From Escherichia coli (GTDB lineage Bacteria > Pseudomonadota > Gammaproteobacteria > Enterobacterales > Enterobacteriaceae): a stretch of DNA of 64,000 nt. The notes under the pieces were generated by a model, which was given only the letters and a program-made list of their open reading frames with translations, was not told where the DNA came from and did not search any database. Below, piece after piece: positions 2,298 through 15,010 of the stretch. The stretch's first letter is position 1, and the number at the start of each line of letters is the position of its first letter. Location: assembly GCF_002854065.1 (NCBI RefSeq), contig NZ_CP024154.1. One strand, given 5' to 3'. A program made the translations under genes and the position numbers.

Positions 2298-2732
2298 ATG
2301 TACGGAACATGCGAAACGCTATGCCGGGAGCTGGCAGCAAAGTATCCGGGAGACACGCCGCTGATGCTGGTTATCTGGTCCCCGGAAGAAATTCAGGCCC
2401 TCGCTGACGGAATGGATATTTCCCTGTCCGATCATGAAATCAGGACTGTCCTGGCGCGCCTGGAGGACATCCCGGAAGACCAGCGGACTGAATCCGGTAT
2501 TTCTTCCGGTGCGGCGATGGAGATTATCAAATACGTGAGCGAAAACCGCCAGGTGACCGTCCCTGCTGAACTGCTGGCGTCCCTGATTCAGACCGCTGAA
2601 CAGGCACTGTGGAAACGTGAGTGGGCCGCCCGTGATAACGGCCTCGCCGTTCCGGAATGCGTCACCCGCCGACAGGCGGTGGTTAATCAGGCCCGCGCCC
2701 TGCTGAAAAACAACACACGCGAAAACGACTGA
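2298..2732 (+). CDS. hypothetical leading-region protein (145 aa), paralog of ORF 4435-4857
   Basis: SD GAGAAGGAGA upstream of ATG 2298; shares MY.T..E and R.VTVPA motifs with the 4435 product. Confidence 0.55.
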   Translation: MYGTCETLCRELAAKYPGDTPLMLVIWSPEEIQALADGMDISLSDHEIRTVLARLEDIPEDQRTESGISSGAAMEIIKYVSENRQVTVPAELLASLIQTAEQALWKREWAARDNGLAVPECVTRRQAVVNQARALLKNNTREND

Positions 2733-2776
2733 TGTTATCGCCGCCTCCGGGCGGCGATACAGGGAGACCATGAATC

Positions 2777-3547
2777 ATGAACGAAACGCTGAATGCACTG
2801 ATTTGTCGCCACGCCCGTAACCTGCTGCTGGCGCAGGGCTGGCCGGAAGAGACGGATGTTGACCAGCGAAATCCGAACTATCCGGGCTGGATCAGCATTT
2901 ACGTGCAGCTGGATGCGCCCCGGCTGGCGACGTTACTCGTTAACCGCCACGATGGCGTGCTGCCGCCGCACCTGGCCTCCGCCATTCAGAAACTGACCGG
3001 AACCGTGGCGGAACTTGTACTGTCCGGCAGCCAGTGGCAGGCGCTGCCGGTACTTCCGGCAGACGGAACGCAGGTGTCTTTCCCGTATGCCGGTGAATGG
3101 CTGACGGAGGAAGAAATCAGGGCCGTTCTTGATGCGGTGCACGATGCGGTACGCAGTGTCAGTTGCCGGGTGGCAGAAGATGCGCGGCGTATCAGGGCGG
3201 CGCTGACCACAACCGGTCAGACGTTGCTGACCCGCCAGACGCGCCGCTTTCGCCTGGTTGTGAAGGAAAGCGATTACCCCTGCTGGCTCGATGAAGACGA
3301 CGAAAACCTGCCCGTGGTGCTCGATGCCATCCTGAACCGGGGCGCTCGTTTTTCGTCGGTGGAAATGTATCTGGTCAGTGAGTGTGTGGAGCATATCCTG
3401 TCCAGTGGGCTGGCCTGCGATGTGCTGCGTATACCTGATGAACCGTCCCGTCGCTGGTTTGACCGGGATATTCTGCGGGAGGTGGTCCTGGAAGCCCGGA
3501 CTGAAATCCGCAGCATGGCGGATGCACTGGCGAAAATCCGGAAATGA
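2777..3547 (+). CDS. hypothetical leading-region protein (256 aa)
   Basis: Long ORF with SD AGGGAGA upstream; no recognised motif. Confidence 0.5.
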
Positions 3548-3619
3548 TGACGCTGGCGGGGAAAAATCTCCGCCTTTTCCAGCCGGTCCCCGGAAAGAGC
3601 AAAAGGATGTCGCCGCAGG

Positions 3620-3945
3620 CTCCGCTTTACCCGGCCATGCGGGGCATGGCCTTGTGGGTTTTCAGTTATGTGGCCTCAGCGCCGTGTGCGGGCTGTGCCG
3701 TGCCTCCATCGTAGCCGGGCTTCTGCGGGCGGGTTGCAAGGTAAGGTGAACCGCTGCGGTCACCCGGTCCCTCCTTCCCGTCTGCCGTGATTTTCCGGTC
3801 GTTCACCCGCTCAGATTTCGCGGTCTCACCCTTCAACTCCCGTCAGCCGTGCGCGTCAGGCTGCGGCTTCCCTTGCGCCCTTGCAACCCTGCAGGCCCGG
3901 CAAAGATGGAGGCACGGCACCGCCCGGTGTCGCGGAATATGTGAA
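3620..3945 (+). repeat. repeat family A copy 1: about 330-bp hairpin-rich element, putative single-strand promoter (Frpo/ssi-like)
   Basis: About 95 percent identical to 10567-10892; contains perfect hairpin GGCCATGC-GGG-GCATGGCC; ends about 20 nt before the klcA start. Confidence 0.6.
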
Positions 3946-3962
3946 CAACGGAGGAAAACATC

Positions 3963-4388
3963 ATGCAATATGCGAAACCTGTCACTCTGAACGTTGAAGA
4001 GTGCGACCGTCTGTCTTTTCTGCCTTACCTGTTTGGCCTGGATTTTCTGTATGCCGAAGCGTCTGTATACGCGCTGGCGAAAAAAATGATGCCGGAATAT
4101 GAAGGCGGATTCTGGCACTTCATCCGCCTGCCGGACGGTGGCGGTTACATGATGCCGGATGGCGACCGTTTCCACATGGTGAACGGTGCAAACTGGTTTG
4201 ACCGTACCGTGAGTGCTGATGCCGCAGGCATCATCCTTACCTCCCTTGTGATTAACCGCCAGTTGTGGCTGTACCACGACAGCGGGGATGCAGGGTTGAC
4301 ACACCTGTACAGGATGCGTGATGCGCAGTTGTGGAGCCACATCGAATTTCACCCCGAATGCAACGCGATTTACGCGGCACTTGACTGA
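3963..4388 (+). CDS. klcA: anti-restriction protein, KlcA/ArdB family
   Basis: 141-aa protein with KlcA/ArdB-like sequence and size; SD GGAGGA upstream; leading-region context. Confidence 0.75.
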
Positions 4389-4434
4389 TTAACGGACGGG
4401 GCGGCAATGCCGCCCCTGTAAAGGAGACGAGAAC

Positions 4435-4857
4435 ATGTACTGTACTGTTAAAGAAATCATCCGCGATGTACTGGATACAGACGTGCCGGACAGTGAATGC
4501 GTTTTTGCCGTGGTGCTGACCCGTGGGGATGTGCGTCACATAGCCCGGGACTGGAACCTGTCAGACGATGAGCTGGAAACCGTCATGCAGCGGCTGGACG
4601 ATGCTTTTGTATATGGCGCATGTGACAGAGTTGTTTCCGATATTGTCAATGAACTGATGGAAGAAAAGCGCGCCAGCCGTCATGTGACAGTCCCGGCGGT
4701 GATGCTGGAAAAAGTGATGGCGCTGGCAGGTAGTGAAATGAAGCGCCTGTATGCCGTCGGGAGTGAGAACGGGGGCGACGGTGACGCATTCGTCAGGGAG
4801 GAACTCGAAGCAATGGACGTTGTGTTGCAGGCGCTGGACGGGGAGACGATGTCATGA
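4435..4857 (+). CDS. hypothetical leading-region protein (140 aa), paralog of ORF 2298-2732
   Basis: SD AAAGGAGA upstream; shared MY.T..E, LSD.E..TV..RL.D and R.VTVPA motifs with the 2298 product. Confidence 0.5.
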   Translation: MYCTVKEIIRDVLDTDVPDSECVFAVVLTRGDVRHIARDWNLSDDELETVMQRLDDAFVYGACDRVVSDIVNELMEEKRASRHVTVPAVMLEKVMALAGSEMKRLYAVGSENGGDGDAFVREELEAMDVVLQALDGETMS

Positions 4858-5045
4858 ATATCAGCACAGAAACCCGCGAAATTCTGCGTAATTACAGGGC
4901 CGTGATTAATGCGCGGCGTCGTGAAATGGGGCAGAAACCGCTCACCACCGCGCAGATTGTTGATGAAATCTGCGATTTTGTGGCGAATCAGCAGGCGGTT
5001 TTCCTGGGCGGTCACTACATCCTTCAGGGCAGCAGAAACAGGTGA
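4854..5045 (+). CDS. hypothetical small protein (63 aa), start overlaps upstream stop (ATGA)
   Basis: ORF with translational coupling only. Confidence 0.35.
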   Translation: MNISTETREILRNYRAVINARRREMGQKPLTTAQIVDEICDFVANQQAVFLGGHYILQGSRNR

Positions 5046-5248
5046 TACAGGGGCAGGCGGTGGAGGCCGCCTGTCAGCCCGCGCGAAAACCCCTGGCAGG
5101 CTGACGCCTGCCGGAAACGAGGGGGGCAGCGCCTGCGGCGCTGCCGGCCCGGCTTTCCGGTCAGAAGGTAGTGTATGGCTGTATGCAGGGAACAGGAGTG
5201 ATATTCCGTGACACTGTCACCGTTTCTGGCTGTCTTTTATTGCGCCCA

Positions 5249-5745
5249 CTTCGGCTCCCGGCTGCCTGGCGGCATCCGGTCGTCAGGCCCGACTCCGACG
5301 GGCAGCTGCTGGCGCACCCGCCAGTCTCCGCCGAACCCGCTGGCGCGGTTTCGGGCTGCCGCTACGGTCCGATGCGTGAAAACCCGGCTTGCAGCGACCG
5401 TTCCGGTCGCGCCGCCCCTGTCGCGCCGTGACCTGCGCTCCCTGCACACCTGACGGTGTGTGAGGAAACTGCGCCTGATGGCGCAGCAGTCCTCCCTCCT
5501 GCCGCCACTCCTGCGGCCTGTTTCCCGCTGTGGACTTTCCGGGGGGCAGACGTAACCCCCTCCCGTTCCATCTGTCCAGGGTGAGATGCACCGGCCACAA
5601 AATTTTTAGCCATGAACCCGGCAAAAAATTTTGCGTCCGCCCCCGGACAGCTGCCCCGTGAGGCGGTAAACGGGCCCCCATCGGAAAGGTCCACTGCGGG
5701 GAGAAACCCCTGTGAAGTGGACGGCAGGAGGAGCTTTCGCTCCTC
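5249..5745 (+). repeat. repeat family B copy 1: about 500-bp hairpin-rich element, putative single-strand promoter/ssi
   Basis: Near-identical to 11592-12090 and partially to 14681-15010; multiple perfect hairpins (GCGACCG-TTC-CGGTCGC, ACACC-TGAC-GGTGT); ends about 70 nt before ssb. Confidence 0.6.
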
Positions 5746-5814
5746 TGAAGGGGCACATGAACGTCCCGTCGCCGGTATCCGGTTTATCTCACATCTTTCA
5801 GTCAGGAGGTTCTT

Positions 5815-6342
5815 ATGAGTGCACGTGGTATCAACAAGGTCATCCTCGTCGGGCGTCTGGGCAATGATCCGGAAGTCCGTTACATCCCCAACGGGGGCGC
5901 AGTGGCAAACCTGCAGGTGGCTACGTCAGAAAGCTGGCGCGACAAACAGACGGGGGAAATGAAGGAACAGACGGAATGGCACCGCGTGGTGCTGTTCGGC
6001 AAGCTCGCGGAAGTGGCTGGCGAATATCTGCGCAAGGGCGCGCAGGTCTACATCGAGGGGCAACTCCGTACCCGTAGCTGGGAAGATAACGGTATCACCC
6101 GTTACGTCACTGAAATTCTTGTTAAGACCACGGGCACCATGCAGATGCTGGGGAGTGCACCACAGCAGAACGCTCAGGCGCAACCGAAGCCTCAGCAGAA
6201 TGGGCAGCCACAGAGTGCTGACGCGACGAAAAAAGGTGGCGCGAAAACGAAAGGCCGTGGACGTAAGGCCGCGCAGCCCGAGCCTCAGCCGCAAACGCCG
6301 GAGGGGGAGGATTACGGGTTTTCAGACGACATCCCGTTCTGA
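5815..6342 (+). CDS. ssb: plasmid single-stranded DNA-binding protein
   Basis: OB-fold SSB N-terminus ([18 protein letters not shown]), Gly/Gln/Pro-rich linker and acidic C-terminal DDIPF tail; SD AGGAGG. Confidence 0.92.
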
Positions 6343-6691: not shown

Positions 6692-8650
6692 ATGCCTGTA
6701 ACGAAGTGTGAACCAGAAACCACCCGCAAAGCAAGCCGTAAATCTGCAAAAACGCAGGAAACTGTCCTGTCTGCCCTGCTGGCGCAGACGGAGGAAGTGA
6801 GCGTGCCGCTGGCCTCGCTGATTAAATCACCGCTGAATGTGCGCACGGTGCCGTATTCTGCGGAGTCCGTCAGCGAACTGGCTGAGTCCATTAAGGGCGT
6901 TGGCCTGTTGCAGAATCTGGTCGTGCATACTCTGCCTGGTGACCGTTACGGTGTCGCCGCAGGTGGTCGCCGACTGGCTGCACTCAACATGCTGGCAGAG
7001 CGTGGCATCATTCCGGCTGACTGGCCTGTCCGTGTGAAGGTCATTCCGCAGGAGCTGGCGACGGCGGCATCAATGACTGAAAACGGTCATCGTCGGGATA
7101 TGCACCCTGCTGAACAGATTGCCGGATTCCGCGCAATGGCGCAGGAAGGCAAAACACCTGCACAAATCGGTGATTTGCTGGGCTATTCACCCCGCCACGT
7201 TCAGCGAATGCTGAAACTGGCTGACCTTGCGCCTGTCATCCTCGATGCGCTGGCAGAAGACCGCATCACCACCGAACACTGTCAGGCGCTGGCGCTGGAG
7301 AACGACACCGCGCGTCAGGTGCAGGTGTTTGAAGCTGCCTGTCAGTCGGGATGGGGCGGAAAACCGGATGTGCGGGTTATCCGCAATCTGATTACGGAAA
7401 GTGAAGTGGCGGTGGCGGGGAACAGTAAATTCCGCTTCGTGGGGGCTGATGCCTTCTCGCCAGACGAACTGCGCACCGATTTGTTCAGCGACGACGAGGG
7501 TGGCTATGTGGACTGCGTGGCGCTCGATGCCGCCCTGCTGGAAAAACTCCAGGCTGTCGCAGAGTTCCTTCGGGAAGCCGAAGGCTGGGGATGGTGCGCC
7601 GGACGCATGGAGCCTGTCGGTGAGTGCCGTGAGGATGCCGGAACATACCGCAACCTGCCGGAGCCGGAAGCGGTGCTGACCGAGGCGGAAGAAGAACGTC
7701 TGAACGAACTGATGACGCGTTACGACGCGCTGGAAAACCAGTGTGAGGAATCTGACCTGCTGGAAGCAGAAATGAAGCTGATGCGCTGCATGGCGAAGGT
7801 CAGAGCGTGGACGCCGGAGATGCGTGCCGGAGGTGGCGTGGTGGTGTCCTGGCGTTATGGCAATGTGTGTGTCCAGCGTGGTGTGCAGTTGCGCAGTGAG
7901 GATGATGCGGCTGACGACGCTGACCGCACGGAACAGGTGCAGGAAAAAGCATCAGTGGAGGAAATCAGTCTGCCACTGCTGACGAAAATGTCTTCCGAAC
8001 GCACGCTGGCAGTCCAGGCAGCACTGATGCAGCAACCGGACAAATCCCTGACACTGCTGGCATGGACGCTCTGCCTGAATGTGTTTGGCAGCGGAGCGTA
8101 CAGTAAACCAGCACAAATCAGCCTGGAATGTAAACATTATTCGCTGACCAGCGATGCGCCATCGGGGAAGGAAGGTACCGCATTCATGGCGCTGATGGCA
8201 GAAAAAGCCCGTCTTGCTGCCCTGTTACCGGAGGGATGGTCACGGGACATGACGACATTCCTGTCACTCAGTCAGGAGGTGCTGTTATCCCTGCTGAGTT
8301 TCTGCACCGCATGCAGCCTTAACGGTGTCCAGACCCGTGAGTGTGGTCACACGTCACGCAGTCCGCTTGACACGCTGGAAACCGCTATCGGATTCCACAT
8401 GCGCGACTGGTGGCAGCCGACAAAAGCAAACTTCTTCGGACACCTGAAAAAGCCGCAGATTATCGCAGCTCTGAATGAGGCAGGACTGTCCGGTGCCGCA
8501 CGGGATGCGGAGAAGATGAAGAAAGGCGATGCGGCTGAACATGCAGAGTTCCACATGAAAGACAACTGCTGGGTGCCTGGCTGGATGTGTGCACCACGTC
8601 CACAGACGGATACCACTGAACGCACCGATAACCTGGCTGATGCCGCCTGA
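6692..8650 (+). CDS. ParB-like nuclease-domain protein (about 653 aa)
   Basis: N-terminal ParB/Srx-like region (LIKSPLNVR, GLLQNLVV, AGGRRLAAL, HRRDMHPAEQ); long acidic C-terminal extension; between ssb and psiB. Confidence 0.7.
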   Translation: MPVTKCEPETTRKASRKSAKTQETVLSALLAQTEEVSVPLASLIKSPLNVRTVPYSAESVSELAESIKGVGLLQNLVVHTLPGDRYGVAAGGRRLAALNMLAERGIIPADWPVRVKVIPQELATAASMTENGHRRDMHPAEQIAGFRAMAQEGKTPAQIGDLLGYSPRHVQRMLKLADLAPVILDALAEDRITTEHCQALALENDTARQVQVFEAACQSGWGGKPDVRVIRNLITESEVAVAGNSKFRFVGADAFSPDELRTDLFSDDEGGYVDCVALDAALLEKLQAVAEFLREAEGWGWCAGRMEPVGECREDAGTYRNLPEPEAVLTEAEEERLNELMTRYDALENQCEESDLLEAEMKLMRCMAKVRAWTPEMRAGGGVVVSWRYGNVCVQRGVQLRSEDDAADDADRTEQVQEKASVEEISLPLLTKMSSERTLAVQAALMQQPDKSLTLLAWTLCLNVFGSGAYSKPAQISLECKHYSLTSDAPSGKEGTAFMALMAEKARLAALLPEGWSRDMTTFLSLSQEVLLSLLSFCTACSLNGVQTRECGHTSRSPLDTLETAIGFHMRDWWQPTKANFFGHLKKPQIIAALNEAGLSGAARDAEKMKKGDAAEHAEFHMKDNCWVPGWMCAPRPQTDTTERTDNLADAA

Positions 8651-10448: not shown

Positions 10449-10566
10449 ACCAGACATGTATATTTTACGCAGGGACACGCCGATCATGATCGTTTCATAT
10501 CAGGGGTGGTCTGGAGGTCATGCGGCGTGTCCTCTGCACTCGCCGGAATAAGGAAGTCGCCGGCGG

Positions 10567-10892
10567 CTCCGCTTTTACCCGGCCATGCGGGGCATGGCCT
10601 TGTGGGTTTTCAGTTATGTGGCCGCCGTGTCGTGTGCGGGCTGTGCCGTGCCTCCATCGTAGCCGGGCTTCTGCGGGCGGGATGCAAGGTAAGATGAACC
10701 GCTGCGGTCACCCGGTCCCTCCTTCCCGTCTGCCGTGATTTTCCGGTCGTTCACCCGCTCAGATTTCGCGGTCTCACCCTCCAACTCCCGTCAGCCGTGC
10801 GCGTCGGGCTGCGGCTTTCCTTGCGCCCTTGCATCCCTGCAGGCCCGGCAAAGATGGAGGCACGGCACCGCCCGGTGTCGCAGAACATGTGA
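10567..10892 (+). repeat. repeat family A copy 2, putative single-strand promoter
   Basis: About 95 percent identical to 3620-3945; ends immediately upstream of the ardA SD. Confidence 0.6.
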
Positions 10893-10909
10893 CTATGGAG
10901 GATTCGGGA

Positions 10910-11410: not shown

Positions 11411-11591
11411 TTTACTCCCCCGCTCCGGCGGGGGTATGGCCTGCCAGGCCGCCGGAAAACCCTGGCAGGCTTACGCCTGCCTGAAATGCAGGAGGGCCGC
11501 GCCTGCGGCGCTGCCCTTCCTGCCCGTCATGGTGTGAGGCATTTTTCTGTTATGTCGTTTCTGTTGTTCTGATTTCCGGAGGCGGGGACAC

Positions 11592-12090
11592 CTTCGGCTC
11601 CCGGCTGCCTGGCGGCATCCGGTCGTCAGGCCCGACTCCGACAGGCAGCTGCTGGCGCACCCGCCAGTCTCCGCCGAACCCGCTGGCGCGGTTTCGGGCT
11701 GCCGCTACGGTCCGATGTCTGAAAAACCAGGCTTGCAGCGACCGTTCCGGTCGCGCCGCCCCTGTCGCGCCGGAAACGGCGCTCCCTGCACACCTGACGG
11801 TGTGTAAGGCCACTGCGCCTGATGGCGCAGTTGTCTGCCCTTCCGCCGCCCCCCCTGCGGCCTGTTTCCCCGCTGTGGACTTTCCGGGGGCTGAAGCGGC
11901 CACAACACGTTTCAGCCGTCCAGGGGAGAGATGTACCAGCCACAAAACTTTTTGCCGCAGGCGTCAAAAACTTTTGCGTCTGCCCCCGGACAACTGCCCC
12001 GTGCCGTGGCAGTCGCTGCCCTATCGGAAAGGTCCACTGCGGGGAGAAACCCCGAAGAAGTGGACGGCAGAAGGGGCTTTCGCCCCTCCG
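11592..12090 (+). repeat. repeat family B copy 2, putative single-strand promoter
   Basis: Near-identical to 5249-5745; ends about 50 nt before ORF 12143. Confidence 0.6.
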
Positions 12091-14680: not shown

Positions 14681-15010
14681 GTCGCGCCGGATGCGGCGCT
14701 CCCTGCACACCTGACGGTGTGTAAGGCCACTGCGCCTGATGGCGCAGCTGTCTCTGCCTGTCTGCCGCCGCACTGCGGCCTGTTCTCCGCAGACGGACTT
14801 TCCGGGGGTGCATACACGACCACATCCCGTTTCAGTCGTCCAGGGGAGAGATGTACCAGCCACAAAACTTTTTACCGCAGGCGTCAAAAACTTTTGCGTC
14901 TGCCCCCGGACAACTGCCCCGTGACGTGGTGAGCGTCCCCCGTCGGAAAGGTCCACTGCGGGGAAATCCCCGAAGACCCGGACGGCAGAAGGAGCTTCGC
15001 TCCTCCGGGA
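14681..15010 (+). repeat. repeat family B copy 3 (5'-truncated), putative single-strand promoter
   Basis: Matches the 3' two-thirds of copies B1/B2; ends about 45 nt before ORF 15057. Confidence 0.55.

Follow-up and report, generated by a model that had tools for sequence, protein, structure and literature searches.

Two adjacent open reading frames (ORFs) lie between klcA and ssb in a 64,000-nucleotide (nt) stretch of Escherichia coli contig NZ_CP024154.1, the whole of which is referred to here as the window. ORF-A (4435–4857, + strand) and ORF-B (4854–5045, + strand) would, in the explanation that we favor and that we regard as a whole as likely, occupy the second and third places, after klcA, in an operon of three genes that belongs to the leading region of a conjugative plasmid. 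The first gene, the anti-restriction gene klcA/ardB (3963–4388, + strand), matches Pfam PF03230 (Antirestrict) with 92.2 bits, and its copies in near-identical plasmids are labelled "antirestriction protein" in their records. After a spacer of 46 nt, ORF-A starts at an ATG and encodes 140 residues up to a TGA stop at 4855–4857, and the 63-residue ORF-B starts at the ATG of 4854–4856, in such a way that both share the tetranucleotide ATGA and the distance between them is −4 nt. Shine-Dalgarno-like motifs precede both of them, AAGGAG for ORF-A and GGGGAG for ORF-B. Between ORF-B and ssb (5815–6342) there are 769 nt of highly structured non-coding DNA. The earlier note on this DNA, made from the letters alone, had described a 63-residue ORF whose start overlaps the stop of ORF-A and had placed both ORFs between klcA and the ssb repeat; the coordinates confirm this overlap exactly, and the pair does lie between klcA and a repeat similar to Frpo located 5' of ssb.

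The same three genes are found, in the same order and with the same 46-nt spacer and ATGA overlap, in plasmid F (NC_002483.1, 56755–57837; L002 in our numbering of lineages) and in the IncI1 plasmid pESBL-EA11 (NC_018659.1, 57371–58453; L016, pESBL from here on). Differences with respect to the window are allelic only, and consist of a variable patch at residues 59–72 of ORF-A and of an identity to pESBL that rises abruptly where the two ORFs meet. Between the window and F the protein identity is 91% for ORF-A and 98% for ORF-B, and the ORF-B protein (WP_001027495.1) is identical in F and pESBL. Compared with pESBL, nucleotide identity ranges from 88.7 to 98.8% across the cluster, and along positions 4435–5814 (7843–9221 of L016) it amounts to 91.7% for ORF-A, 97.9% for ORF-B and 98.8% for the spacer up to ssb, a jump at the A/B junction that suggests a recombination breakpoint nearby. 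The pair is present in 3,509 of 5,426 complete E. coli genomes (around two thirds), almost always on plasmids, and the family is confined to plasmids of Enterobacterales, namely those of Escherichia, Salmonella, Klebsiella, Shigella, Citrobacter, Enterobacter, Serratia, Raoultella and Pectobacterium.

A 63-codon ORF by itself does not exceed chance expectation in DNA as rich in G+C as this, in which 91 ORFs of at least 40 residues were found in 9 kb, along with long antisense open frames, so that ORF-B is called a gene because of its conservation across lineages. A search with ORF-A among 1.8 billion representative proteins gave only 125 clusters, and the genomic contexts of the few distant relatives found in it were then inspected. 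In every lineage examined, the ORF-A relative was located directly 3' of a klcA homolog, even when the KlcA proteins were only 39–45% identical. In four of these lineages a small ORF followed the ORF-A homolog: one of 63 residues in L003 (GTG start, 13-nt gap, 63% identity to ORF-B), one of 58 residues in L008 (ATGA overlap, 47% identity), one of 63 residues in L011 (10-nt gap, 46% identity), and one of 58 residues with an 11-nt overlap in L017, a Pectobacterium plasmid. The ratio of nonsynonymous to synonymous substitution rates (dN/dS) of ORF-B was 0.11 between the window and F and 0.26–0.33 in more distant pairs, with synonymous sites saturated in the most distant of them; for comparison, the window-to-F values were 0.34 for ORF-A and 0.09 for KlcA. 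In the most distant pairs, ORF-B retains 46–47% identity versus 31–37% for ORF-A. A profile search with ORF-B retrieved 518 protein clusters at E ≤ 0.01, nearly all of those listed being of around 63 residues, with a large clade from Salmonella and Citrobacter at approximately 60–67% identity among them, and at least 95% protein identity was kept in all of the best 5,000 plasmid records. Judged by this conservation, ORF-B is a protein-coding gene under purifying selection. The antisense ORFs of the 4435–5045 segment, such as one of 111 residues at 4680–5015 (− strand), were also considered and were rejected, their open frames not being conserved across lineages.

The earlier note had also proposed that ORF-A is a paralog of the ORF at 2298–2732 (+ strand), a canonical DUF1380 gene of the YubF/YfcB type (Pfam PF07128, 181.4 bits) that belongs to a methylase-YubE-DUF1380 operon. 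Both proteins align in BLASTP with 26% identity over 116 residues (E = 2e-7). Against the DUF1380 profile itself ORF-A scores 17.5 bits, below the gathering score of 26 (E = 0.0047, profile positions 1–102 of 137), and precomputed PF07128 matches are present on some of its close homologs. When the ORF-A subfamily and canonical DUF1380 proteins were each aligned from several plasmid lineages and the two alignments were compared profile to profile with hhalign, the match had a probability of 99.6% and E = 9.7e-24 across 136 aligned columns, and a central R-x-V-T-V-P-A motif is common to both. The paralogy thus passes the check by alignment statistics clearly, and as far as homology along the full length can tell, ORF-A is a genuine, divergent DUF1380 paralog. 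The two types resemble each other in length, in acidic character and in their location in leading regions of enterobacterial plasmids, but their identity is only 22–26% and their neighbors differ: klcA precedes ORF-A, and ORF-B often comes next, whereas the canonical gene follows the methylase and YubE and precedes a gene for a 256-residue protein. No relation of ORF-B to YubE or to this 256-residue protein was detected with hhalign (probability below 1%), and therefore the two operons are not simple duplicates of a module formed by a DUF1380 protein and its partner. In L017 (NZ_CP034939.1, from Pectobacterium odoriferum), positions 2545–4030 contain klcA, two tandem DUF1380-type genes and then the 58-residue ORF-B homolog, so on its gene content the ORF-A-type gene is duplicated inside that operon. 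Homologs of ORF-A appear in different sources as YubJ, YfeC, YcgC or YcjA, and the last of these names is applied inconsistently, since in pS88 ycjA means a ParB-like gene.

The expression of the three genes can be approached from the DNA that surrounds them. Upstream of klcA, the segment 3603–3955 (− strand) contains a long imperfect hairpin, with inverted-repeat arms at 3689–3720 and 3895–3926, that is homologous to the "class 2" promoters described as active in single-stranded DNA (ssDNA). Its predicted ssDNA fold is more stable than that of shuffled sequences (z = −3.67), it is 88.7% identical to the corresponding region of pESBL, and a second copy with 94.6% identity is found at 10550–10902, directly 5' of ardA. 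In the distal arm of the T-strand, the klcA copy has TTGCAA-N20-TACGAT and the ardA copy TTGCAT-N20-TACGAT, which we infer to be candidate −35 and −10 promoter boxes. On the other side of the unit, a region of the Frpo/ssi type ("class 1") is located 5' of ssb at 5249–5745 (− strand; ssDNA fold z = −5.3), and is repeated at 11592–12088 (87% identity) and at 14681–15005 (80%); the three copies are presumably the class 1 ssDNA promoters ssi1 to ssi3. As the 5249–5745 element starts the next operon, it sets the right-hand limit of the klcA-ORF-A-ORF-B unit. A third and unrelated hairpin (1096–1320, with 30-nt arms separated by 165 nt) lies 5' of an orphan DNA methylase gene (1379–2062) and its place is that of the published "class 3" promoter. 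No sigma-70-like promoter was detected anywhere in 3400–5900, and the weak terminator-like sites of that segment numbered three versus 2.2 expected from shuffles, with one inside ORF-B and none between the genes.

These elements reproduce the arrangement that Wen et al. 2025 (PMC12672017) describe for pESBL, with the same classes at the same gene positions. In that study, six leading-region operons of pESBL are induced up to around 500-fold at 15 min after conjugation. The ssDNA promoters that drive them fall into class 1 (ssi/Frpo), class 2 (5' of klcA and of ardA, and alike in both places) and class 3 (located 5' of the methylase), their start sites having been mapped by 5' rapid amplification of cDNA ends, and the operon of the klcA homolog of F is also enriched in transconjugants. 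ORF-A and ORF-B are oriented so that the transferred strand serves as template, as are ssb, psiB, psiA and ardA, and in the syntenic pESBL the genes nikA and nikB and oriT are found downstream of ardA. The klcA-ORF-A-ORF-B unit is therefore like the zygotically induced operons in its orientation, in its large upstream hairpin and in the near-identical copy of the latter at ardA, likenesses that are known here from sequence.

The window, F and pESBL agree at 100% of the 46 nt that separate klcA from ORF-A, while the flanking genes are 91–93% identical. This spacer holds a G+C-rich stem-loop, GGGGCGGC-AAT-GCCGCCCC (4397–4415, + strand), between the klcA stop and the Shine-Dalgarno motif of ORF-A, and this stem-loop is without a T-run on its 3' side. 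All nine lineages compared have a hairpin at this position, the stem being of another sequence in L008 and L010, and it could act as an mRNA stabilizer, as an attenuator or as a structure of the ssDNA.

According to the favored explanation, the − strand of the window would enter the recipient first, as ssDNA, during conjugation, and the hairpin at 3603–3955 would fold on this incoming strand into a promoter-like duplex, from which the host RNA polymerase would transcribe klcA, ORF-A and ORF-B before the synthesis of the complementary strand; once the DNA is double-stranded, the promoter would be silent. Ribosomes that end ORF-A on the shared ATGA would go on to translate ORF-B, the outcome being a burst, in the first minutes, of KlcA together with a strongly acidic helical DUF1380-type protein of 140 residues and a small basic protein of two helices. 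Both of them would serve the establishment of the plasmid or its counter-defense by binding a host or plasmid protein, possibly as a pair. The parts of this scheme do not have the same strength. A tricistronic klcA-ORF-A-ORF-B transcript is very likely, and the induction of the klcA operon by an ssDNA promoter, published for the pESBL and F orthologs, is carried over to the window by analogy. A function of the two proteins in anti-defense or establishment through protein binding, suggested by their genomic context, is held tentatively, with somewhat more doubt than conviction, and a complex between ORF-A and ORF-B seems to us rather unlikely.

The predicted structures and the compositions of the two proteins are compatible with several roles. 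ORF-A was predicted by AlphaFold2 to form six helices, ending in a long antiparallel helical hairpin, with a mean predicted local distance difference test (pLDDT) score of 80, and its net charge is −16 in the window and between −14 and −16 in all of seven lineages. ORF-B was predicted as a two-helix hairpin (helices 5–24 and 32–51, pLDDT 74), with a net charge of +1 to +3 in the seven lineages examined, and its conserved features are an arginine-rich first helix (R8, R12, R21–23), an invariant cysteine and a C-terminal A-V-[FY]-L-G-G. Searches of Pfam, NCBIfam and PHROGs assigned neither protein to a family of known function, the extra matches being only to unannotated PHROG families; sequence profiles of the Protein Data Bank (PDB) yielded no solved structure, fold comparison gave nothing beyond generic helical hairpins, and a Foldseek search of ORF-B against the PDB returned nothing usable. 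In the same family and structure searches no similarity of sequence or fold to a characterized anti-defense protein was detected. Neither protein had a match in 50,697 phage records, an absence that is consistent with a role specific to conjugation.

A functional analogy can be drawn with the acidic DNA mimics ArdA and Ocr, as these and ORF-A are small, strongly acidic and early, and ORF-A sits among anti-restriction genes. However, ORF-A shows no similarity of sequence or fold to them, and its predicted shape, helical and with a helical hairpin at the C terminus, is not that of an elongated mimic. Among close homologs, the variation of ORF-A is concentrated at residues 59–72 (4609–4650 in the window), where two main alleles exist, GACDRVVSDIVNEL and GADVSIVHDVVREL, and diversifying selection on an interaction surface could account for this patch, as could a mosaic produced by recombination. 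A bolder proposal would make ORF-A and ORF-B a new class of effectors for counter-defense or host reprogramming, delivered together with KlcA within minutes of the DNA's arrival, with the 59–72 patch as the interface of an arms race with a host target; in it both proteins are functionally tied to klcA, hence the invariable synteny. We consider this proposal speculative and probably wrong in its full form.

Several observations weigh against the favored explanation. ORF-B is absent in L010 and in L013/L014, so it is dispensable in some lineages, and its homolog in L006 (4486–4680) and in L007 carries an in-frame TGA at codon 26, with ORF-A intact. This TGA was identical in the assembly from NCBI and in an independent sequencing run, and therefore ORF-B appears to be a pseudogene in the L006/L007 lineage. 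Because ORF-B is missing or nonsense-mutated in such cases, an obligate complex between both proteins is unlikely. The acidity of ORF-A alone is weak evidence for a mimic or an inhibitor, and read-through from klcA could be attenuated by the conserved hairpin of the spacer. In addition, Wen et al. (PMC12672017), in the sections that describe the operon, call it by klcA and do not name ORF-A or ORF-B individually.

Among the rival explanations, the most serious is that ORF-A and ORF-B are accessory factors of KlcA, either co-factors or specificity modules, against type I or other restriction. The constant position of ORF-A after klcA, down to 39% KlcA identity, and the fully conserved spacer between both genes in the window, F and pESBL would be expected from it, and the operon of the other DUF1380 paralog is likewise headed by a gene of restriction evasion, the orphan methylase. 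ArdB/KlcA proteins reportedly work in vivo and not in vitro, which suggests missing partners. On the other hand, klcA of IncP plasmids is presumably followed by klcB and korC and not by a DUF1380 gene, and ORF-A evolves faster than KlcA, as their window-to-F dN/dS values indicate. The idea is further weakened because KlcA cloned alone was active in anti-restriction in vivo, according to a published study (PMC9366191), and we consider it improbable. Less probable still is that ORF-B is a small nucleic-acid-binding regulator, for example of ssDNA promoters, priming or host genes, and is modulated by ORF-A. The conserved arginine-rich first helix of its two-helix model, its position next to the Frpo-like region and its conservation above that of ORF-A fit such a role, but no helix-turn-helix or other DNA-binding family was matched by ORF-B, its net charge is no higher than +3 and in some lineages +1, and the model is of moderate confidence (pLDDT 74).

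A module of the toxin-antitoxin type, in which the acidic ORF-A would neutralize the small basic ORF-B, could be imagined from two small, translationally coupled genes of opposite charge, all the more as toxin-antitoxin genes and orphan antitoxins are over-represented in leading regions (Samuel et al., PMC11541004) and as the loss or nonsense mutation of ORF-B in lineages that keep ORF-A is what would be expected when a toxin is lost. We judge it very unlikely: neither protein matches a toxin or antitoxin family in Pfam, NCBIfam or PHROGs, no promoter-like site that could serve autoregulation lies directly upstream, where the 46-nt spacer accommodates only the hairpin and the Shine-Dalgarno motif, a transient expression limited to the ssDNA phase is ill-suited to an addiction module, and ORF-B, the would-be toxin, experiences purifying selection more strongly than ORF-A does and remains intact in the best 5,000 plasmid records. 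Finally, ORF-B might be a chance ORF, with ORF-A as the sole gene. The abundance of chance ORFs of this size in G+C-rich DNA, on the antisense strand too, and the lack of a family match for ORF-B would agree with this. Nevertheless, its length, start position and protein sequence are kept at 46–63% identity while synonymous sites are saturated, nearly all of those listed among the 518 clusters of the profile search are of around 63 residues, and the antisense frames, unlike ORF-B, are not conserved, in such a way that this last alternative is effectively refuted.

Both genes had been catalogued before, and thousands of records already annotate them. In the NCBI Prokaryotic Genome Annotation Pipeline (PGAP), ORF-A is a "DUF1380 family protein" (WP_000271688.1) and ORF-B a "hypothetical protein" (WP_001027516.1), and homologs of the latter are named "plasmid protein", AreA, YffA or YchA in other sources. 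Supplementary Table 1 of Samuel et al. 2024 (PMC11541004) gathers the families enriched in leading regions, many of them likely to be anti-defense according to those authors. Its family 6 (4,048 members; "plasmid protein"/AreA/YffA/YchA) and family 14 (3,145 members; YcjA/YcgC/YfeC/YubJ/Orf52), both given as "Uncharacterized" and among the largest of that kind, match by name the homologs of ORF-B and ORF-A, respectively, and canonical DUF1380 is its family 7. Literature searches on the gene and family names found no functional study of ORF-A or ORF-B. Thus, the two genes are already annotated, catalogued and very common. As they are so common, the observation of the earlier note is correct but ordinary, and it adds nothing beyond the existing annotation and the published catalogues of leading-region families. 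The interest of the pair lies in that numerous resistance plasmids from Klebsiella, Salmonella and Shigella carry it, and in that the genes of its operon are, in closely related plasmids, among the earliest of the plasmid to be transcribed once a new host is entered. Assigning a function to the pair would close a gap in the account of how resistance plasmids of the IncF and IncI types become established.

Regarding the setting, IncK2/Z plasmids such as pSTEC2018_607-b share 99.8% identity with the region, and by its sequence the window represents a conjugative plasmid's leading region, of the I-complex (IncK2/Z-like). Its genes follow the order DUF1281, methylase, YubE, DUF1380, the 256-residue protein, klcA, ORF-A, ORF-B and ssb, and continue with DUF905, a ParB-like protein, psiB, psiA and ardA, in such a way that ORF-A and ORF-B are surrounded by klcA, ardA, psiB, psiA, ssb and the orphan methylase.

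Some minor features of the non-coding DNA were also recorded. An Rfam scan gave only two sub-threshold chance matches, and the one to "Erse" (E = 0.04), on the hairpin at 1096–1320, is probably a chance match to the hairpin itself. The terminator-like hairpin inside ORF-B (4951–4974, followed by ATTTTGTGG) falls within codons 33–44 and is probably due to chance. In the Frpo-like spacer, PGAP annotates "hypothetical proteins" at around 5117–5431 of the window, at 5808–6164 (− strand) of L002 (plasmid F) and at 8467–8838 of L016 (pESBL); as strands and frames differ between records, these calls are probably spurious and placed on ssDNA-promoter DNA. Lastly, a G+C-rich element of around 78 nt is found 3' of ORF-B (5069–5145) and again 3' of ardA (11439–11515), with 86% identity between the copies. 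It therefore marks where both class 2 operons end and is directly followed by a class 1 element, and it might terminate these operons or belong to the next promoter.
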